Shown in pieces: positions 10,652 to 53,325 of a stretch of DNA of 64,000 nucleotides. The DNA is from Candidatus Nomurabacteria bacterium RIFCSPLOWO2_01_FULL_39_18 (GTDB taxonomy: Bacteria > Patescibacteriota > Minisyncoccia > Phycocordibacterales > UBA9973). The stretch is from positions 16,197 to 80,196 of the forward strand of contig MFUV01000006.1 in the NCBI GenBank assembly GCA_001787005.1, given 5' to 3'. Under the pieces are notes generated by a model. It saw only the letters and a program-made list of their open reading frames with translations. It was not told where the DNA came from and did not search any database. Positions within the stretch are counted from its first letter, which is position 1. The number at the start of each line of letters is the position of its first letter. The translations under genes and the position numbers were made by a program.

Positions 10652-10676
10652 CAGATAGAGGTCTAGACTCTATCTG
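10652..10676. repeat. Palindrome CAGATAGAGgTCTAGACTCTATCTG.
   Basis: Member of the family; it closes the frame just upstream of the truncated RAYT. Confidence 0.7.
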
Positions 10677-10681
10677 AGCCC

Positions 10682-11146
10682 TTGGTTGCAATTATTGCTT
10701 ATTGTCTAAATCCAAACCATTTTCATTTTATCTTAAAACAATTAGTTGATGGTGGCATAGCTAAATTTATGCAAAAACTACAAGGAGGTTATACTTATTA
10801 TTTTAATGTAAAAAATTCCCGTACCGGATCGCTTTTTCAAGGAACTTTCAAGTCACATCTCATGAATAGTGAAAATTATTTTAATAAAATTCTTGGGTAT
10901 ACAAATAAAAACTATCAAGTTCACAATATTCCAAAAAATAAAATGGATCTTATTTTCGCTAGCGACTTCGAGTATGAAAATAATAATTTTAAGATTGTTT
11001 CCAAAAAAGAAGGAAAAAGAATTTTGGAAATTTTTAATGGTAGCAAAAATTTTAAGAAACACTGCGATGAGATTGTTTCAATTATTAGAAAAGAAAGAGG
11101 TAAAACTTCTCTTTTAGAAGAAGACAATCTCCCAGATAGAGTCTAA
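10682..11146 (+). pseudogene. N-terminally truncated IS200/IS605-like (RAYT/Y1 HUH) transposase fragment.
   Basis: AYCLNPNHFHFIL matches the HUH motif AYCLMPNHFHVL of the full RAYT at 51467-52105. The region is homologous through GxxxGxFKS, but the N-terminal YHLYNRG part is missing. It begins at a TTG right after a stop inside the palindrome. Confidence 0.6.
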
Positions 11147-11159
11147 AGCTCTATCTGGG
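11131..11159. repeat. Palindrome cCCAGATAGAGTCTAAAGCTCTATCTGGg.
   Basis: Member of the family; it supplies the last codons and the stop of the RAYT fragment. Confidence 0.7.
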
Positions 11160-33223: not shown

Positions 33224-35161
33224 ATGTCAAAAATCATAGGTATAGATTTGGGTACAACAAATTCAGCAGTAGCCGTCATAGAAGGAGGCGCACCGAAGAT
33301 TATAGAAAATGCAGAGGGAAATCGTACGACCCCCTCTGTGGTTTCGGTCGCCAAGAATGGCGACAGGCTTGTCGGACTTCTTGCTAAAAGGCAGGCAGTT
33401 ACCAACCCGGAAAATACAATTTACGGGATCAAGCGTTTCATGGGTCATAATTTTGAAGACCCGGAGGTGCAGAAAGATTTGAAAAATGCGTCATTCAAAG
33501 TTCAGAAAGGAGCCACCGGCGGAGTGGAAGTAAAAATTGGTGATAAATGGATGCGCCCAGAAGAAATCTCCGCGATGATTCTGTCAAAAATAAAATCTGA
33601 TGTGGAAGCGAAATTGGGAGTGAAAATTACTGAAGCGGTCATAACTGTGCCGGCATACTTCAACGATGCGCAAAGAAAAGCAACCAAAGATGCGGGGCAA
33701 ATTGCCGGGCTTGATGTGAAGCGTATCATCAATGAGCCGACAGCCGCCGCTCTCGCCTATGGATTCAATAAAAAGAAAAATGAAAAGATCGTAGTGTTTG
33801 ATTTCGGCGGGGGAACATTTGATGTGTCTGTGCTCGAGATTGGTGATGATGTAGTTGAAGTTAAGTCCACTGATGGCGACAGCCACCTCGGAGGCCGCGA
33901 TATTGATCACAAGATAATCAACTGGATTGCAGAAGAATTTAAAAAAACTTCTGGCGTGGATGTGCGTTCTGACAAGCTTGCTCTACAACGTCTGGACGAA
34001 GCGGCAGAAAAAGCGAAAATCGAGCTCTCAACCGCCATTGAAACAGAAATTAATATTCCATTCATCACTTCTACGGCGCAAGGCCCGCAACACTTACTTC
34101 TTAAAATGACTCGAGCCCAGCTCGAATCTATCGCTGATGAATATATAGCTCGTTCGATAGAGATAACGAAGCGCGCGATGGCTTCTTCTGGTTTTAAGAT
34201 TGAAGATATGAATGAAATAGTGATGGTGGGTGGGCAGACCAGAATGCCGAAGATCGTTGAGGAAGTGAAAAAGGTTTTCAATAAGACCCCAAACTTAACT
34301 ATCAACCCGGATGAAGTCGTGGCTCTCGGCGCCGCTGTGCAGGCGGGGGTATTGCAAGGAGATGTGCGAGATGTTCTACTCCTTGACGTGATACCACTTT
34401 CGCTTGGCATTGAGACATTGGGCGGAGTGGCCACTAAATTAGTTGAAAGAAATACGACTATTCCTTCAAATAAGTCGCAAGTGTTTTCTACTGCGGCTGA
34501 CAACCAGACTTCCGTAGAAATTCACATTACTCAAGGCGAGCGTCCAATGGCGAGCGACAATAAATCTTTGGGACGATTTATACTAGATGGTGTACCACCA
34601 GCACCGAGGGGCATGCCCCAAATAGAAGTGTCCTTTGATGTGGATGCCAATGGAATTCTAAATGTTACGGCAAAAGACAAAGCCAGTGGCAAGACCCAGT
34701 CCATTAAAATTGAAGCAAGTTCAGGACTCAAAGAAGAAGATATTAAAAAGATGCAAGCCGACGCGGAGCTTCATGCTGAAGAAGACAAAAAGAAAAAAGA
34801 CGTTGTGGATACAAAAAATACCGCAGAGATGATTATTTACACTGCTGAGAAAGCGCTGAAGGACAACGAAGCGAAAATTCCGGCAGAATTAAAAGATAAC
34901 GTGAATGCTAAGATCACAGCACTGCGAACCGCAAAAGACCTGCCTGCGCAGGCAGGTGGCACGGATTCAGATGCAATCAAAAAAGCGACCGAGGAACTTT
35001 CAACCGAAATGTCTAAAATTGGAGAAGCGATTCAGAAAAATTCACCCGAATCCGCAGGAGGCGGGCAGGCCAAGGCTCCCGAAGAACAGCCGACAGAAGT
35101 CAAAGACGCAGAATTCAAAGAAAAAAAAGAAGGGGAAGAAGGTGAATCTCCAAAAGCGTAA
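33224..35161 (+). CDS. dnaK: Chaperone DnaK (Hsp70).
   Basis: [24 protein letters not shown] and [15 protein letters not shown] are present. There is an in-frame 18-mer palindrome insert (DLPAQAGGT) near the C-terminus. Confidence 0.95.
34939..34956. repeat. Perfect 18-nt palindrome CCTGCCTGCGCAGGCAGG, in frame within dnaK.
   Basis: Encodes LPAQAG. Confidence 0.8.
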
Positions 35162-35180
35162 TTAAAAATAAAAAAATATC

Positions 35181-35798
35181 ATGGACTACAACACACTAGC
35201 TACAAAAGAATCTATAGAAAAAGTTGTCGAGGCACTTAGTGCAAGGAATGTTGAAGCACTAGTGGTAGAGTCTGGCAGTGATGCGCTTCTTAAAATAAAA
35301 GAGCTTATCCCGCAGGGCGCATCGGTTATGAACGGAGCCTCGGTTACGCTCGAGCAGATTGGCTTCGTAGATTATCTTAAAGGGGGAGAGCATGGTTGGA
35401 ACAATCTACATGAGGGAATAATTGCAGAAAAAGATTCTGCTAAGCAAGCACAACTGAGGAAGCTTGGCGTGCTGTCTGATTATTATCTGGGCAGTGTACA
35501 TGCACTCGCAGAGACGGGTCAGTTCGTTATTGCGTCCAATACCGGCAGCCAATTGCCGCATGTAGTATATTCTTCCCGCAACCTTATTTTCGTAGTGAGC
35601 ACCAAGAAAATTGTCCCGACTTTGCCGGATGCTATGACTCGCCTCATGGAGCATGTGATACCGCTCGAAGAAAAACACATGCAAGAAAAATATGGCGTCG
35701 GCACGGCGCCGAACAAGATTGTTACTTGGAATGGCGAGAGCGCTTACAATGGCAGAAAAATAAAAATGATCTTAGTAAATGAAGATCTCGGGTTTTAG
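35181..35798 (+). CDS. LUD-domain protein (LutC/YkgG family).
   Basis: It is about 205 aa, with GASVTLEQIGF...VIASNTGSQL...KIVTWNGESAYNGRKIKMILVNEDLG typical of DUF162/LUD. Confidence 0.55.
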   Translation: MDYNTLATKESIEKVVEALSARNVEALVVESGSDALLKIKELIPQGASVMNGASVTLEQIGFVDYLKGGEHGWNNLHEGIIAEKDSAKQAQLRKLGVLSDYYLGSVHALAETGQFVIASNTGSQLPHVVYSSRNLIFVVSTKKIVPTLPDAMTRLMEHVIPLEEKHMQEKYGVGTAPNKIVTWNGESAYNGRKIKMILVNEDLGF

Positions 35799-35935
35799 AA
35801 TTTTTTTGTTATAAATCAGAAAACCACCAAAGAACGGGGTTCCATGGTGGTTGATTTTCTCACGAATTATTTTACTGTCCTCTGCGGACGAGACCCCGTG
35901 AGAATGGATCCCGCCCGCTTGCGTCGAGGTTTCTC

Positions 35936-36481
35936 CTACGCGACGACGCTCTGCTTCTGCATGATGCGCGATACGAGCGCAGGGGTCGGGAAGAACACGT
36001 CATCCTCTCCGTCTCGAACTTGCAGGAGCATCTCCCTCTCGACTAGTTCTTGGACGCCGACGAAGACATGCTGGGGTCCGAACATGAAGATCCCGCTGAA
36101 CGGGATCTCAGGGATCTCATGCATTTGCGCCACCGGTTTCGCAACGAAGAGCGCATAGATCCCGATCGTGAGAATGGAGAGGATGTAGTACTTCCACATC
36201 GCACGCTGGATGCGCTCGCGCTCGTTGAAGTTGTGCTCCTGCGCCTTTTCGGCGCGCTGACACAACTCGTAATCTCCCTGCATCATCTCGACAAGACGGT
36301 GCCAGCTCACGCCGACCCACTGGTCGAGTTGTAGAGAGAAAGAGAGGATGCGTGCCGCAGCCTCCTCCCGTTCTGCCTTTTCGAGCGTTGCTATCAGGCT
36401 GTACTTACCGACGCGAATTGCTCTGGGGGAGCAGGGCATCTCTCCCTCAACTTTAAATAATCCTCTTCCCACTAACTTCAT
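35936..36481 (-). CDS. Hypothetical protein encoded in a GC-rich (~55-60% GC) islet; it has one predicted TM segment.
   Basis: It is the longest ORF in a region whose base composition departs sharply from the flanks. It is preceded by a ggaaaag RBS. Confidence 0.4.
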   Translation of the reverse strand: MKLVGRGLFKVEGEMPCSPRAIRVGKYSLIATLEKAEREEAAARILSFSLQLDQWVGVSWHRLVEMMQGDYELCQRAEKAQEHNFNERERIQRAMWKYYILSILTIGIYALFVAKPVAQMHEIPEIPFSGIFMFGPQHVFVGVQELVEREMLLQVRDGEDDVFFPTPALVSRIMQKQSVVA

Positions 36482-36617
36482 TTTTCTTTTCCTTTCTTGT
36501 CAAGGCGCCGGGGCCATCTAGATGTGGGCGGCGCGAACTTGTTCCTTATAAATATAGCACATTTTGAGTAAAAAGTCAATAGAACATAGGTATTTAGTTT
36601 GAAAAATCGAGCTAGTA

Positions 36618-38771
36618 ATGTATAATCTAATAATGGATTCCCCGGAAATACCCTTTAATAAAGAACTTACTTATCTCGGTATTACTACTTATCGGGACAA
36701 AAATACTCTTTTTGGCATCAAGCGCAAAGACAGACGTCAGCATGTTTACATGCTCGGAAAGTCCGGTACTGGTAAATCGGTATTGATGTTTAATATGATT
36801 ATTCAGAACATCCAGAACGGCGAGGGGGTCTGTTTGGTTGATCCGCATGGAGAAAATGTCGAAGGAGTTTTGTCTGCCATTCCGCCGCACCGCATGAAGG
36901 ATGTGGTTTATTTCAATCCCGCTGATGCCGACTATCATATCGGTTTTAATGTTTTAGAGTTGGTTGACCCTCAATATAAGCACTTGGTGGCTTCTGGACT
37001 AATGGGAATATTTACGAAGATTTGGGCGAATGCCTGGAGCGCTCGAATGGAATATATTCTAAACAATTGTATTCTGGCGCTCCTCGATACTCCAGGGACG
37101 ACGCTTCTCGGAATTCCTCGAATGCTGGTGGACAAGGACTATCGTCAGAAAATAATTTCCAATTTAAAAGATCCGGTGATTAAGGCTTTCTGGGTGCACG
37201 AATACGAAGCTTGGCAGGACAAATTTAGAAATGAAGCGATTGCTCCGATTCAAAACAAAGTCGGGCAGTTTCTTTCTACTTCTATTATCCGAAATGTCGT
37301 TGGTCAATCCAAAAGTACGATCAATATTTTTGACATGATGAATAACGGCAAGATCTTTTTAGTAAATGTTTCCAAAGGGCGTATTGGCGAGGACAATTCC
37401 GCGCTTCTCGGGGGCATGATTATTACCAAGATTCAGCTTGCCGCCATGGAGCGTGTGCGCATTCCCGAAGAGTCGCGTAAAGACTTCTATCTCTATGTGG
37501 ACGAATTTCAAAACTTTGTGACGGACGCTTTCGCCGGCATTCTTTCAGAGGCTCGCAAATATCGATTAAATTTGACCGTAGCTCATCAATACACTGCCCA
37601 GCTTATTTCAGACAAAAGCTCGGCGGTGCGCGATGCCATATTTGGCAACGTCGGTACGATGATAATCTTTCGCGTGGGGGCGGACGATGCGGAATTTCTA
37701 GAAAAAGAATTTGAACCGGAGTTTACTCCGCAGGATATTGTGAATCTGCCGAATTATAAAATTTATTTGAAATTGATGATTGACGGCGTGACCTCTCGTC
37801 CTTTCTCCGCGAAAACAATGCCCCAGATGGTGAAATCGGGGAATAAAGAAGTTGAACAAGAAGTAATAAGATCTTCTCGCGAGCTTTATTGCCGGCCGAA
37901 AGATGTTGTGGAAAGAGAAATTAATAATTGGAGCGGAATGTCGCTTGGCAATGATAGCGATGGAGGCAGTAGTGCGCTAGAAAAATTCCCCGTCATCTGC
38001 TCGCTTTGCAAGAAGGAGACGACAGTGCCTTTCAAGCCAGAAAAGGGCAGGGCAGTATATTGCAAAGATTGTATTGCGAAAATAAAATCCGGAGAAGTCA
38101 AAGTGGAGAAAGGGTCAGAGAATCAGATCAAGCACGATGAAACAAAATTTTATAAACCGCTGGCTGACCTCGGAATAGAATTTGAGCGGAAAGACGCTGG
38201 ACACGTTGAAGAAGAAAACAGGCATCCCGAAAGGACTGATACGCATACTACCAAAACCACTCTTCCACCGCACAAATCAAGCGTTCTTGGAGCTATTAAA
38301 AAACCTGCCCGACCAGATGACCCTGGTCGTTCGAGCGGGGTTTTTCATCATGATGATGAAAGTAAAAAAACAAAAGACAATGTAGCCTTGAGAGAAGTTT
38401 TAAACAAAACGCTTACGGCGCCTACTCCGAAACCAGAGCCCCAGGCTAGTCAGCCCAGAGAGGAAGTTTCACTTGATGCTTTGAAAAATAAAGTTAAAGA
38501 TATTGCTGCTACTTCCAAACCTGCTCACAATGCTGCGGTAGGTACTACAGGCAAAGACCGTGCCGCAGGTCCAGAAGAAATGGGTAAATTGAAGGATTTA
38601 ATCGCGGCTAAATCCAGCGAAACTGTACCGCCCGAAGTTGAGAAAAAACCAGAACCTACTCCTATTCCAACTCCTCCACCTGCACCAGAAAAGAAAGTTG
38701 TAGAGCCCCCACTGACCAAGGGCAATATAAAAGAAGTGCCAGAAGATGTGTTAATGAAAATTCTAGAGTAA
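36618..38771 (+). CDS. FtsK/HerA/VirD4(TraG)-like P-loop ATPase with a C-terminal zinc ribbon and a low-complexity tail; no transmembrane anchor.
   Basis: Walker A is HVYMLGKSGTGKS and Walker B is FYLYVDEFQNF. EARKYRLNLTVAHQYTAQL is coupling-protein-like. The zinc ribbon is CSLCKKETTVPFKPEKGRAVYCKDCIAK. There is a paralog at 44842. Confidence 0.6.
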   Translation: MYNLIMDSPEIPFNKELTYLGITTYRDKNTLFGIKRKDRRQHVYMLGKSGTGKSVLMFNMIIQNIQNGEGVCLVDPHGENVEGVLSAIPPHRMKDVVYFNPADADYHIGFNVLELVDPQYKHLVASGLMGIFTKIWANAWSARMEYILNNCILALLDTPGTTLLGIPRMLVDKDYRQKIISNLKDPVIKAFWVHEYEAWQDKFRNEAIAPIQNKVGQFLSTSIIRNVVGQSKSTINIFDMMNNGKIFLVNVSKGRIGEDNSALLGGMIITKIQLAAMERVRIPEESRKDFYLYVDEFQNFVTDAFAGILSEARKYRLNLTVAHQYTAQLISDKSSAVRDAIFGNVGTMIIFRVGADDAEFLEKEFEPEFTPQDIVNLPNYKIYLKLMIDGVTSRPFSAKTMPQMVKSGNKEVEQEVIRSSRELYCRPKDVVEREINNWSGMSLGNDSDGGSSALEKFPVICSLCKKETTVPFKPEKGRAVYCKDCIAKIKSGEVKVEKGSENQIKHDETKFYKPLADLGIEFERKDAGHVEEENRHPERTDTHTTKTTLPPHKSSVLGAIKKPARPDDPGRSSGVFHHDDESKKTKDNVALREVLNKTLTAPTPKPEPQASQPREEVSLDALKNKVKDIAATSKPAHNAAVGTTGKDRAAGPEEMGKLKDLIAAKSSETVPPEVEKKPEPTPIPTPPPAPEKKVVEPPLTKGNIKEVPEDVLMKILE

Positions 38772-48204: not shown

Positions 48205-49620
48205 CTAAATTTTCGAGATTTTTTGTCCTTGATCAGTATCTTTAATTTCATAACCCAGGGAATTTATTTTTTTTCTTAAATCATCAGATTTTTTGAAATC
48301 CTTATCTTTTCGCGCTTGCTCGCGTTCTTCCGCTAGCTCGAGAATTTCTTCCGGAATTGCCTCAATTTTTAGATTTTCCAATCCCAATCCTAGCACTTTA
48401 TCAAAGTCCAAAACAGTAGTCTTTTTGTCCGCAAGGGAGATATTTTCGTCCTTTAAAATATCCCATAGCACTGTCAGTGCCCGAGGAGTGTCTAGGTCGT
48501 CTTCTAGGTAGCTTTTGAACTTTTTTTGGTATTTCGGGCTTATGGCTCCTAGTTCGCTGTCAGTCTTGCTTGTTGCTAGCTCATTGTAGAGTCCGTAGAG
48601 CCTTTTTAGGGCTATTTCTGCGCCTTCCAATGCTTCCCAATTGAAATTGACCTTAGTACGATAGCTAGACATTAGAAGCCAAAAACGGTAGGCTACCGCG
48701 CTTATTCCTTTTTCTGTGATGTTTCCTAACTTCAAAAAATCTCCCGACGACTTGGCCATTTTGGTGCCGCCAAAATCCACAAATTCATTATGCATCCAAA
48801 ATTTTACAAAAGGTTTTTTGCTAGTTGCGCATTCTGATTGAGCGATCTCATTGGTGTGGTGTGTGGGCATGAGGTCAATGCCTCCTGTATGAATATCAAA
48901 CTGCTCGCCAAGAAATTTCATGCTCATGGCTGAGCATTCTATATGCCAACCAGGAAACCCTACACCCCATGGGGATTCGAAGCCAAGAACATTTCCGCCA
49001 GAGGCGGATCCGCCTTTGGCGGAAAATTTCCACAGAGCAAAATCTTCTGGATTTTTCTTTTCTGGATTTTCAGTAATCCTAGCGTGGTCTTTATCTCGAG
49101 TTGTTTTTCCGCCCCAAAGTATTCCGTAGTCGGGCATTTTGGAAGTTTCAAAATAAATTCCATCACTCGTTTTGTACGTATAACCTTTTTCCTCCAGTTT
49201 CTTTACGAGCTCTATGTCTTCTTTTACAAAATCACTTGCAAAGTGGAGTTCTTCCGGTATTTCAATGTTAAGCGCTCGAAGATCGCTTTTAAATTTTTCC
49301 GTATAAAATTCTGCCAGCCCGCGCATATTTTTTAAGGTCAATTCTTTTCTTTCCCGCAGAAGCCCCTTGGTCATTTTATCCTCACCTGAATCCGCATCGC
49401 TCGACAAGTGTCCGATGTCGGTGATATTCATAACCCTTTTAACTTTGTATCCAGCGTATTCCAAAGTTTTTTGCAAAATATCCGCAAAAACAAAAGCTCT
49501 CAAATTGCCGATATGGGCATAATCATACACCGTCGGTCCGCATGAATATATTCTGACACGACCTTCTTCGATTGGCACAAATTCTTCTTTTTTCCGCGTT
49601 AGCGTGTTATACAATTGCAT
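48205..49620 (-). CDS. cysS: Cysteinyl-tRNA synthetase.
   Basis: RIYSCGPTVYDYAHIGNLR (HIGH) and KMAKSSGDF (KMSKS) are present. Confidence 0.9.
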   Translation of the reverse strand: MQLYNTLTRKKEEFVPIEEGRVRIYSCGPTVYDYAHIGNLRAFVFADILQKTLEYAGYKVKRVMNITDIGHLSSDADSGEDKMTKGLLRERKELTLKNMRGLAEFYTEKFKSDLRALNIEIPEELHFASDFVKEDIELVKKLEEKGYTYKTSDGIYFETSKMPDYGILWGGKTTRDKDHARITENPEKKNPEDFALWKFSAKGGSASGGNVLGFESPWGVGFPGWHIECSAMSMKFLGEQFDIHTGGIDLMPTHHTNEIAQSECATSKKPFVKFWMHNEFVDFGGTKMAKSSGDFLKLGNITEKGISAVAYRFWLLMSSYRTKVNFNWEALEGAEIALKRLYGLYNELATSKTDSELGAISPKYQKKFKSYLEDDLDTPRALTVLWDILKDENISLADKKTTVLDFDKVLGLGLENLKIEAIPEEILELAEEREQARKDKDFKKSDDLRKKINSLGYEIKDTDQGQKISKI

Positions 49621-51433: not shown

Positions 51434-52158
51434 TTAAGAAATACACAGGCGTTGCCTGTGTATTTCTTAAGAGCTATTGAAAAAACTAAGCCATTCGAAC
51501 AATTCATTCTGATGATCAATCAGTTTTTTGAAATAAGAAGGAAATCGCACAGGATTTAAAATTTTGAATTTTTCTTCAACATATTCTTTTGTACTTGAAT
51601 ATGGATAAGTAAAAACATATTTTAGTAAATTTTTAGTATTTCTACTTTTATTTTCCTTCCAATTTTTATCTATCAATTTTGCTGGATTCAGATGAATATA
51701 CGAATAAAGATATTTTAGATATGTGTCCTTATTCGCATGGATTGATTTAAATACACCCTCATATAATTTCCCAGTTCGTTTGTATTTTTTATTAAAATAC
51801 ATCGAATATCCAGTCATTAGTTTAAGCATATATTTAGAAATTCCATTTTTTACTTTTTCACGAACAAGGACATGAAAATGATTAGGCATTAAACAATATG
51901 CACCAATATCAATTATAGTTTCTTCGCGATCAAAAGTTTTGCCAATATCTCTTAATTTAATACTTTTCACCGTATTGCAAATATACATTAAAAACAAAAA
52001 ATAATCATAATCATTTTTATCCAAAAAGATCAGTCTTTTTTCTGTGCCACGATTATATAAATGATAATATTCATCCACAGCGAAAGATTGTTTTCTTAAA
52101 GCCATGTTTTTAAGTATAGCATAATTAAACAAATACACAGGCAACGCCTGTGTATTTG
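51434..52158 (-). mobile_element. IS200/IS605-like RAYT locus: a Y1 HUH transposase flanked by inverted copies of a ~30-37-nt palindrome.
   Basis: The palindromes TTAAGAAATACACAGGC-gtt-GCCTGTGTATTTCTTAA (51434-51470) and CAAATACACAGGC-aac-GCCTGTGTATTTG (52130-52158) bracket the transposase CDS. Confidence 0.7.
51467..52105 (-). CDS. REP-associated tyrosine transposase (RAYT, IS200-like Y1 HUH).
   Basis: It has YHLYNRG, the HUH motif AYCLMPNHFHVLV, and GKLYEGVFKS...YIHLNP. The start was moved to the internal ATG (the tracked ORF begins at a TTG at 52144). Confidence 0.75.
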   Translation of the reverse strand: MALRKQSFAVDEYYHLYNRGTEKRLIFLDKNDYDYFLFLMYICNTVKSIKLRDIGKTFDREETIIDIGAYCLMPNHFHVLVREKVKNGISKYMLKLMTGYSMYFNKKYKRTGKLYEGVFKSIHANKDTYLKYLYSYIHLNPAKLIDKNWKENKSRNTKNLLKYVFTYPYSSTKEYVEEKFKILNPVRFPSYFKKLIDHQNELFEWLSFFNSS

Positions 52159-52185
52159 TGATATCAGCTTTTATATATCATGTAT

Positions 52186-52614: not shown

Positions 52615-53325
52615 TTACTGCCTATTTTTCAATGCGTTTTTGAGGGTGTCGTTGTCGGAATATTCTAGCTCAGTGCCAGTGGAGAGGCCCTTGCCCAGGG
52701 AGGAGATTTTAATATTTTGTTTATCCGCGACATTTTTAATCTGTTCTCTAACATAGGAATCTGTATGGTTACCCTGTGGGCTGACAGAAAAAGCAAGAAT
52801 TATTTCTTGAAGTGCGTTGCGTGAGGCAAGACCTAACGCGTTAGCGTTAGGTCTTGCCTCACGCATGATTTTTTCTTTTAATTCTTCAATTCGTATCTTG
52901 CTCTTGGTGTTTTTCTCAACTATCGGTACAAGCCCGCCTAGGATAAAATATTTACCATTATAAACCCGGCTTTTCTTAACAGATTCTAAATCGGAATCCT
53001 TTTCCACAACCATTAGAACAGAAGAGTCTGTACTTGTGTTGCCGCAGATGTCACACGTTTTATTTATCCCGCCATTGACGGGGTTTTTACCATTTTTCCC
53101 GCCTGCAGGAGCTATGCTTTCAGCATTGCGGGCGGGAACGATAAAAAATCGAAAACATTCTCCGCACTGCGCTACTTCTTTTTTTAGATCTGTTATCAAG
53201 AGAGCCAAATTTTCCGCATAACTTCCGTTTTTGGACATTAAAAAATAAACAAATCGTTTTGCCTGGCGCTCTCCAATGCCGGGAAATTCTTTAAAAATTT
53301 CTGTTAGTTTATCTACAATATCCAT
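52615..53325 (-). CDS. recR: Recombination protein RecR.
   Basis: It has the HhH FPGIGERQAKRFVYFL, the C4 zinc finger CGECFRFF and a Toprim domain. It also carries an in-frame 48-nt perfect palindrome insert and a C-terminal extension. Confidence 0.85.
   Translation of the reverse strand: MDIVDKLTEIFKEFPGIGERQAKRFVYFLMSKNGSYAENLALLITDLKKEVAQCGECFRFFIVPARNAESIAPAGGKNGKNPVNGGINKTCDICGNTSTDSSVLMVVEKDSDLESVKKSRVYNGKYFILGGLVPIVEKNTKSKIRIEELKEKIMREARPNANALGLASRNALQEIILAFSVSPQGNHTDSYVREQIKNVADKQNIKISSLGKGLSTGTELEYSDNDTLKNALKNRQ
52818..52865. repeat. Perfect 22-bp-stem hairpin (48 nt) inserted in frame in recR.
   Basis: TGCGTGAGGCAAGACCTAACGC-gtta-GCGTTAGGTCTTGCCTCACGCA encodes MREARPNANALGLASR. 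Confidence 0.8.

Follow-up and report, generated by a model that had tools for sequence, protein, structure and literature searches.

A perfect palindrome inside recR of a Nomurabacteria genome, probably a copy of a dispersed REP/REPIN-type family linked to RAYT-like genes

How does a perfect palindrome of 48 nucleotides (nt) come to lie, in frame, inside an intact recR gene? The question is raised by a stretch of 64,000 nt (64 kb; the window in what follows) of Candidatus Nomurabacteria bacterium RIFCSPLOWO2_01_FULL_39_18 (GenBank assembly GCA_001787005.1, contig MFUV01000006.1, positions 16,197 to 80,196 of the forward strand), in which a hairpin occupies positions 52818-52865 within the gene for RecR. 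The hairpin is probably a copy of a palindromic family, of the type of the repetitive extragenic palindromes (REPs) and REPINs, that is dispersed in Patescibacteria (Nomurabacteria/Paceibacteria), mobilised by relatives of the REP-associated tyrosine transposases (RAYTs) and tolerated in a protein loop. Taken separately, membership in a dispersed REP-like family is proposed here with high confidence, and mobilisation by a RAYT-like enzyme is an explanation towards which we lean only slightly. The gene and the parts of the hairpin are the following:

52615..53325, minus strand: recR, intact, 236 amino acids (aa), with the Pfam domains RecR_HhH, Toprim_4 and RecR_C; aligns to solved RecR structures
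52818..52865, unstranded: perfect palindrome, inverted doublet of a REP-like unit (REPIN-like), 22-bp arms and 4-nt loop
52813..52866, minus strand: extra loop residues (MREARPNANALGLASRNA) from the element and its extensions, codons 154-171, from the translation and RecR alignments
52819..52839, plus strand: unit of the left arm, mini-hairpin GCGTGAGG-CAAGA-CCTAACGC, with CAAGA as pentaloop and a stem of 8 bp that has one G/A mismatch
52844..52864, plus strand: unit of the right arm, inverted copy of the left one, GCGTTAGG-TCTTG-CCTCACGC
52838..52849, plus strand: 6-nt tandem duplication GCGTTA.GCGTTA, by comparison with orthologous copies
52813..52822, plus strand: TGCGT.TGCGT in tandem, at the left arm's outer edge (slippage in place or lengthening of the arm)

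The arms, TGCGTGAGGCAAGACCTAACGC (52818-52839) and GCGTTAGGTCTTGCCTCACGCA (52844-52865), enclose the loop GTTA (52840-52843) and are complementary at 22 of 22 bases, and the same hairpin was independently picked up, as I6, by an inverted-repeat finder, so that the perfect 22-bp stem and 4-nt loop of the original prediction are confirmed. The search for other copies of the 22-mer arm that the prediction had advised, run on the 64 kb with up to three mismatches allowed, returned only the two arms themselves (0 matches expected from 100 shuffles). Folded as single-stranded DNA, the hairpin reaches -30.4 kcal/mol, against -7.0 +/- 2.1 in shuffled sequences (z = -10.9). The 48 nt preserve the reading frame of recR and encode the peptide MREARPNANALGLASR, as predicted; they do not, however, coincide with exactly 16 codons, as they run from the second base of codon 154 to the first base of codon 170, one base off the codon boundaries. 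Fold-back artefacts in some library types can yield perfect palindromes, and a chimeric fold-back of assembly or sequencing has to be named as an explanation, although its probability is negligible. An identical RecR protein is on record in aquifer time-series metagenomes, on 12 contigs that come from different samples and were built by different assemblers, the recR DNA of the eight contigs fetched is byte-identical, hairpin included, and the reading frame is intact; these independent contigs, together with the orthologous copies in other species described below, refute the artefact.

The main evidence on the nature of the hairpin comes from an exact scan of metagenome contigs with the pattern GAGGCAAGRCCT-N(2-12)-AGGYCTTGCCTC, which gave 90 matches on 87 stretches, only 14 of them in recR. 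The matches fall into 72 distinct contexts, about 60 of which lie outside recR, mostly inside long open reading frames (ORFs), where they are read as follows:

Frame 1: 31 contexts, peptide EARPNMLGLAS
Frame 2: 18 contexts, peptide (S/P)RQ(D/G)L...GLASG
Frame 3: 4 contexts, peptide GGKAS...EALPP
Short or no ORF: 19 contexts, no peptide

Since three reading frames are in use, the entity common to these contexts is the DNA and not the peptide, and a selected peptide as the cause of the spread is ruled out on the same ground. In frames 2 and 3, the palindromes have centres that stay clear of stop codons. The hosts confirmed by Pfam comprise DNA-related proteins (LigA, UvrB, a GyrB-type ATPase, RuvA, RecG, Fpg and TopA) and others (enolase, TypA/BipA, PurD, Der, transketolase, TpiA, the gamma subunit of ATP synthase (AtpG) and an MTS methyltransferase); with RecR included, proteins acting on DNA make up eight of the 16 host families so confirmed, as a raw count over loci L089-L175. 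One frequent host ORF looked PriA-like, had no Pfam match and was left unnamed. In diverged species the insert is shared at orthologous sites of ligA (L112, L120, L138) and of an unnamed 650-aa protein (four loci), and a single ORF in L091 holds two copies. No copy of the palindrome was found in the viral contigs scanned.

The sequence that extends each palindrome outwards is often a mirror image of the palindrome's own centre, which indicates that each arm is itself a small hairpin and that the element is an inverted doublet, as in ACGGAGG-CAAGG-CCTCCGT (L094) and GTCGAGG-CAAGG-CCTCGAC (L113). The unit is a stem-loop of about 20 nt whose stem varies and whose pentaloop, CAAGR, closed by ..AGG/CCT.., is conserved. 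It also occurs as a singlet: TGCGTTAGG-CAAGA-CCTAACGCA, inside an aminopeptidase-like ORF of L073, matches the left-arm unit of recR at 21 of 22 positions. In a census of CAAGR-loop hairpins whose stem has 6 bp or more, 125 were counted in 0.66 Mb of pattern-anchored loci, compared with 3 in shuffled sequence, and 90 of these 125 lie within ORFs of at least 100 aa; in 1.40 Mb of recR-anchored loci 27 were counted, compared with 5 in shuffled sequence, and these include inserts of the SPKQGLGE type in the recR loop and terminator-like singlets directly past the recR stop codon. From this census, the conserved feature of the family is the pentaloop with its closing pairs, and the stems vary. The singlets that follow the recR stop codon (..ACGACTAGG-TCTTG-CCTAGTCGT.., with A/T-rich flanks) were seen in three species and look like terminators made from the CAAGR family:

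L012, 10632-10672: post-recR CAAGR singlet
L014, 10611-10651: post-recR CAAGR singlet
L048, 10621-10653: post-recR CAAGR singlet

This dispersal bears directly on whether the palindrome could have arisen within recR, by template switching or snap-back synthesis, its likeness to the other copies being a coincidence. Slippage does act at this place, as the tandem GCGTTA and TGCGT repeats (two copies each) show, and quasipalindrome correction is an established mutational process. Identical sequences of 32-38 nt in dozens of unrelated genes and genomes make an independent origin impossible, however, and the L073 singlet points the same way; a purely local origin, which we regard as very improbable, is effectively refuted by the dispersed identical copies of the pattern scan.

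At the protein level, RecR retains all its conserved residues despite the insert. Aligned with this RecR, the solved structure 3VDP leaves a gap of 13 residues at precisely the hairpin's position, which places the hairpin between a Toprim helix and the next strand; this alignment was used for placement instead of the AlphaFold2 model of RecR (32 close homologs), whose predicted local distance difference test score (pLDDT) of 51.5 was too poor. The gap and the roughly 60 unrelated contexts in three frames bear out the original prediction of an inserted palindromic element as opposed to a product of coding constraint. The extra length of RecR (236 aa against about 200), which had been noted in connection with the hairpin, is only in part its doing. 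The closest homologs have 202-227 aa, and the hairpin supplies only about 13 of the approximately 34 extra residues; about 20 come from a second insert, together with the adjoining KNGKNPVNGG:

53098..53136, minus strand: second in-frame insert, in the zinc-finger loop of RecR, PARNAESIAPAGG; imperfect palindrome CCCGCC...GGCGGG

Peptides of the PARNAESIAPAGG type recur in the RecR proteins P0004, P0011 and P0016, and an unrelated ORF of 261 aa in L025 has one as well. In fact, the RecR alignment (A1) has two hypervariable sites, a loop of the zinc-finger region and the Toprim loop between ELKxKI and L(K/Q)EIILAFS. At the latter, the position of the hairpin, many orthologs of only 70-80% protein identity bear SEARP(N/S)xLGLAS, and in others the loop has seven residues (SSSKELK, for example) or the insert is a different one. 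Among 80 species-level recR loci that served as the comparison set, carriers of the palindrome in the recR loop, in addition to 14 metagenomic recR genes, include:

L010: 20-bp arms, no loop
L012: 18-bp arms, 2-nt loop
L013: 20-bp arms, no loop, plus a partial arm duplication
L015: 21-bp arms, 2-nt loop
L019: 18-bp arms, 2-nt loop

The stems are perfect in all of these copies, with three compensated arm changes (AGA/GGT with AGG/GGC, AAC/TTA with AGC/CTA and AGT/TCA with AGC/TCG) and no uncompensated one, and free variation is confined to the central 2 nt. Specific to the genome under study are only the 6-nt central duplication and the TGCGT/ACGCA extensions of the arms; the duplication, which on the coding strand is a double TAACGC, adds Asn-Ala and gives the centre, which canonically is CCTAACGCGTTAGG without a loop, an 8-bp stem and a loop of 4 nt.

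In a neighbour-joining tree of recR with the inserts masked, which is approximate, carriers are scattered, each beside an insert-free sister, which argues for repeated gain and/or loss rather than for one recent event; the tree has no support values, and repeated gain and repeated loss are indistinguishable from it. Moreover, L032 and L044 retain GAGGCAAGACCTCAG at the recR loop, which is, judging by its sequence, the expected leftover of a slippage deletion between two CCT repeats, and these loci thus appear to hold deletion remnants. The insertion can therefore not be called recent, as had been supposed, given the same element in the same RecR loop of species at about 70-80% protein identity and the remnants in L032 and L044. 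The original prediction had also held that conservation of the segment at the protein level across distant taxa, in a RecR alignment, would refute an insertion. Conservation of the segment does exist, formally, within Nomurabacteria; the insertion nevertheless stands, because the distribution is patchy and what is conserved is the DNA palindrome.

Retention at the same site in several species, perfect stems with free loop nucleotides and compensated arm changes are also what selection on the hairpin within recR would leave, whether as an mRNA structure acting in translation or stability, as an antisense terminator or as a DNA cruciform site. Conservation at synonymous sites is somewhat higher within the element than beside it: where all six carriers share an invariant amino acid, the codon too is the same in 5 of 9 columns of the element, as compared with 23 of 123 columns of the flanks (Fisher p = 0.02). 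On the antisense (plus) strand the hairpin is followed by a T-run and obtains a terminator-like score, and on the sense strand of recR no GC-rich stem with an immediate U-run is seen. Against these points, the T-run is merely the reverse complement of the conserved codons for KEKI, the same sequence recurs in the roughly 60 unrelated contexts and three frames, and among recR orthologs it is patchily distributed, some sister species lacking the insert and some loci keeping deletion remnants. An Rfam search of the hairpin gave no family match, only sub-threshold matches to generic hairpins (miRNA precursors), and there is no excess of G.U over A.C mismatches on the sense strand (2 versus 3, with 7 of other types), a count of too few cases. 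A selected function in recR is consequently held to be improbable, and a copy of a dispersed family remains the preferred reading.

A RAYT-like transposase gene lies close to recR. The Y1 genes of the window, with the hairpins flanking the first of them, are:

51467..52144, minus strand: gene for a RAYT-like Y1 (HUH) transposase, two genes downstream of recR (Pfam Y1_Tnp, IS200-like)
51434..51470, unstranded: hairpin TTAAGAAATACACAGGC-GTT-GCCTGTGTATTTCTTAA, 3' flank of the Y1 gene
52129..52159, unstranded: hairpin ACAAATACACAGGC-AAC-GCCTGTGTATTTGT, 5' flank of the Y1 gene
10682..11146, plus strand: second Y1 homolog, truncated, N-terminal part missing

The product of the gene at 51467..52144 matches PF01797 at 33.3 bits (cut-off 23), and its sole NCBIfam match is NF047646 (REP-associated tyrosine transposase, REP_Tyr_transpos). 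It has an invariant NHxH (H89/H91, the HUH motif) and an invariant Tyr149 in YIHLNP, and at least 7947 relatives, which are annotated only as 'transposase'. In a Foldseek search of the PDB with its AlphaFold2 model (pLDDT 52.5), the best match was 4ER8_A (probability 0.98, E 0.015, TM 0.51), a result that is suggestive only; the structures of IS608 and ISDra2 TnpA rank after it. 4ER8 is the E. coli RAYT bound to a REP hairpin. Orthologs of the Y1 gene with 64-78% identity adjoin recR on its downstream side in at least eight other species, with conserved recR-Y1 gene order, and this conserved position fits vertical inheritance better than an insertion sequence. As a separate observation, contig L003 shows no difference from contig L001 of the same organism through dnaB, recR and the HIT gene and into the first part of the Y1 gene; from about 60 nt inside the latter it becomes a mosaic and continues with Maf, NTPase, NUDIX and SMC genes instead of L21. 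Either recombination took place at the transposase gene, or the assembly is chimeric across a gene that is repeated.

The two hairpins that bracket the recR-adjacent Y1 gene are perfect and related to each other (..ATACACAGGC-GTT/AAC-GCCTGTGTAT..), and they are not of the CAAGR type. The truncated homolog is flanked by hairpins of the form CAGATAGAG-N7-CTCTATCTG at 10652-10676 and 11132-11158, and a perfect doublet of this same family, with 21-bp arms, overlaps the stop codon of a grpE-like ORF at 27287-27333. The hairpins beside both Y1 genes of the window thus belong to other families, and the recR copy is accordingly an orphan unless a gene elsewhere in the genome serves it. In the pattern-anchored loci, Y1 homologs with 46-53% identity do have CAAGR hairpins as direct flanks:

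L140: upstream doublet, downstream singlet
L107: upstream singlet and doublet, downstream inverted singlet
L158/L135: upstream doublet, downstream singlet
L171: downstream doublet
L130: several upstream
L148, L149/L129 and L092: singlets upstream and downstream

More distant Y1 homologs carry other hairpins, including a classical GTAG-type hairpin in L104. It is the flanking of Y1 genes by CAAGR hairpins that ties the family to the REP/RAYT system, because a repeat flanking its Y1 gene is the defining signature in RAYT-REPIN biology (Bertels, 2017; PMC5581495).

Several points weigh against this proposal. The arm sequence of the scan matches was fixed by the search pattern, so that their uniformity is partly by construction, and the unbiased evidence of conservation is the recR-anchored set. 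The window holds only one copy of the recR-hairpin family and no CAAGR-flanked Y1 gene, its two Y1 homologs carrying hairpins of the ACACAGGC and GATAGAG types. The NF047646 score of the recR-adjacent gene, 32.5 bits, lies below the equivalog cut-off of 80; sequence and profile searches of the PDB with its protein did not find E. coli TnpA-REP and returned ISDra2 TnpA only, at E 0.2; and the fold match depends on a low-confidence model (pLDDT 52, E = 0.015). Neither GTAG/CTAC nor CGTC/GACG was found at the foot of the recR hairpin or of the CAAGR singlets flanking Y1 genes, and no target site or target duplication was resolved across the 72 contexts and the recR empty sites, where the comparison had to use orthologs of at most 83% DNA identity with a gapped alignment at the junction. 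Finally, in further species the same recR loop holds other GC-rich palindromes (SPKQGLGE type, GGSASGG type, KPASTRGDSSTRGG type), and the reuse of this one loop by several types, with some palindrome present in about one species in five, is more than random insertion alone can account for.

Some of these points would suit a different route for the same dispersed family, in which it spread without a RAYT, by ectopic template switching, by microhomology gene conversion or through an unknown enzyme. The window without a CAAGR-flanked Y1 gene, the missing GTAG tag and the missing defined target site agree with such a route, the native loop (GAA AAA GAA ...) is, in our view, loosely like the arm start GAGGCAAGA, and CGTC REPs and the palindromic elements of Rickettsia (RPEs) are reportedly without an associated transposase (Di Nocera et al., 2013; PMC3733652). 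On the other hand, at least eight distinct Y1 genes have CAAGR hairpins on one or both sides, a number far above expectation for one gene among hundreds, and spread without a RAYT is accordingly considered unlikely, though less so than the alternatives discussed above.

Among known systems, the closest are REP and REPIN elements with their RAYT transposases (Nunvar, 2010; Bertels and Rainey, 2011; Ton-Hoang, 2012). With a stem of 8 bp (one mismatch) and a loop of 5 nt, the stem-loop unit in recR falls within the range of REPs, whose stems have 5-13 bp and loops 2-20 nt (Di Nocera et al., 2013, Table 1; PMC3733652). REPs are found predominantly as head-to-head dimers and in association with RAYT genes (PMC3733652), and likewise the recR units are inverted, 4 nt apart, and fold into one larger hairpin, CAAGR copies are dispersed over about 72 contexts in many genomes (with one copy in the 64 kb), and CAAGR hairpins flank Y1/HUH genes in related genomes, other hairpins doing so in the window. 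The recR element does lie within a gene, unlike a REP in the literal, extragenic sense; intragenic REPs are nevertheless documented, in frame and mostly as dimers encoding 20-30 aa, many of them in replication and repair genes (PMC3733652), and some CAAGR copies resemble these in being in-frame, mostly dimeric and in many cases within genes of DNA replication and repair. The family differs from described REPs in its lack of a GTAG or CGTC tetranucleotide tag, in the conservation of its pentaloop with variable stems, in its mostly intragenic rather than extragenic location in the sampled sequence (the 90 of 125 census hairpins given above), in its doublets, which are perfect palindromes with loops of 0-4 nt, and in its hosts, which are Patescibacteria, also known as the Candidate Phyla Radiation (CPR), with associated Y1 proteins below the NCBIfam cut-off for RAYTs. 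A RAYT gene would be expected to be a single copy, inherited vertically and flanked by palindromic repeats; the gene at 51467..52144 has hairpins on both sides and orthologs beside recR, but also a second, truncated homolog in the window. Its Y1_Tnp domain, HUH motif, conserved Tyr and hairpin flanks also recall the IS200/IS605 elements (ISHp608, ISDra2), from which the recR hairpin differs in that it carries no gene and is not a copy of an insertion sequence; the fixed position of the Y1 gene beside recR looks more like a domesticated RAYT than like a multi-copy insertion sequence.

Other palindromic elements are less close. The RPE-1 elements of Rickettsia have a length of about 100-150 bp, next to which there are short, CGTC-tagged types. 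The recR element, in contrast to RPEs, is a perfect palindrome of 32-48 nt, unrelated in sequence, without a CGTC tag and tied to Y1 genes. Both kinds of element are in-frame palindromes in functional-looking genes, adding a surface peptide to the protein, and both occur in small, reduced genomes (Ogata et al., 2000, cited in PMC3733652). Mitochondrial hairpins and double hairpins, such as the repetitive hairpin-forming elements of sponges (PMC2800124) and the coding palindromes of Nematomorpha (PMC6649704), are likewise GC-rich repeats in AT-rich, compact coding regions with the frame kept, and differ in being organellar, unrelated in sequence and without an associated transposase. MITEs, the miniature inverted-repeat transposable elements, measure 70-300 bp, with terminal inverted repeats around a non-palindromic core and a target-site duplication. 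A MITE identity was rejected, as the recR element is wholly a 32-48-nt palindrome and no flanking direct repeats were seen in the 72 contexts. In the open-access literature searched, no description of such elements in CPR/Patescibacteria was found, and the recR element is best read as a new family of a known kind of system, that of REP/REPIN elements with RAYT-like genes, in an intragenic form.

From this reading, a sequence of events can be proposed. E. coli TnpA-REP acts in vitro on single-stranded hairpin DNA, in the manner of the IS200/IS605 family. A RAYT-like HUH transposase may spread, or may once have spread, the CAAGR family by way of single-stranded hairpin DNA, and the insertions that survive would be only those that keep the frame, contain no stop codon and fall into tolerant surface loops. 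The arms could then be kept perfect by self-templated correction, of the quasipalindrome or template-switch kind, or by continued turnover, with no function in RecR involved. The 6-nt central duplication and the TGCGT repeats would be due to local slippage.

The window contains further repeats. The gene cysS (48205..49620, minus strand) contains, in frame at 48987..49030, a double-hairpin palindrome encoding AKGGSASGG, which consists of two tandem small hairpins (TCCGCC-AGA-GGCGGA and TCCGCC-TTT-GGCGGA) and differs from the recR hairpin family; elements of this kind, FSAxGGSASGG, occur in at least six different long ORFs of other loci, including the recR loop of L027. A perfect, A/T-rich inverted repeat of 30 nt is found at 734-763 and 820-849, with arms 56 nt apart, and near it is a 24-nt A/T-rich inverted repeat with 88% complementarity (423-446 and 479-502). 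The G+C content rises to about 0.46 at 34001-38000, compared with about 0.38 elsewhere in the window, which could reflect rRNA or another block of conserved RNA or genes.

For the biology of these tiny groundwater bacteria, many of whose essential genes carry such repeats in frame, the finding accounts for a RecR that, like many other CPR proteins, exceeds its orthologs in length: the extra residues contributed by the hairpin are the product of selfish palindromic DNA and not a functional addition, a point of relevance to annotation, alignment and structure prediction in poorly known CPR bacteria. With it, the range of the REP/RAYT system comes to include the Candidate Phyla Radiation, in a mostly intragenic form, and the bias of intragenic REPs to DNA replication and repair genes, hitherto unexplained (PMC3733652), recurs in a distant phylum. 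A broader and more speculative idea is that Patescibacteria possess a lineage-wide CAAGR system of the RAYT/REPIN type without GTAG or CGTC tag, residing mainly inside essential genes with a preference for those of DNA replication, repair and recombination, with one RecR loop as a recurrent hot-spot and with palindromes kept perfect by active correction or selection. Were this so, the system would be an overlooked and significant source of protein-length variation in the CPR, and a tractable case of the coexistence of hairpin transposons with coding sequence. The recR loop itself, with its repeated gain, decay and maintenance of perfect stems, is a convenient natural experiment for studying the formation, correction and deletion of palindromes.

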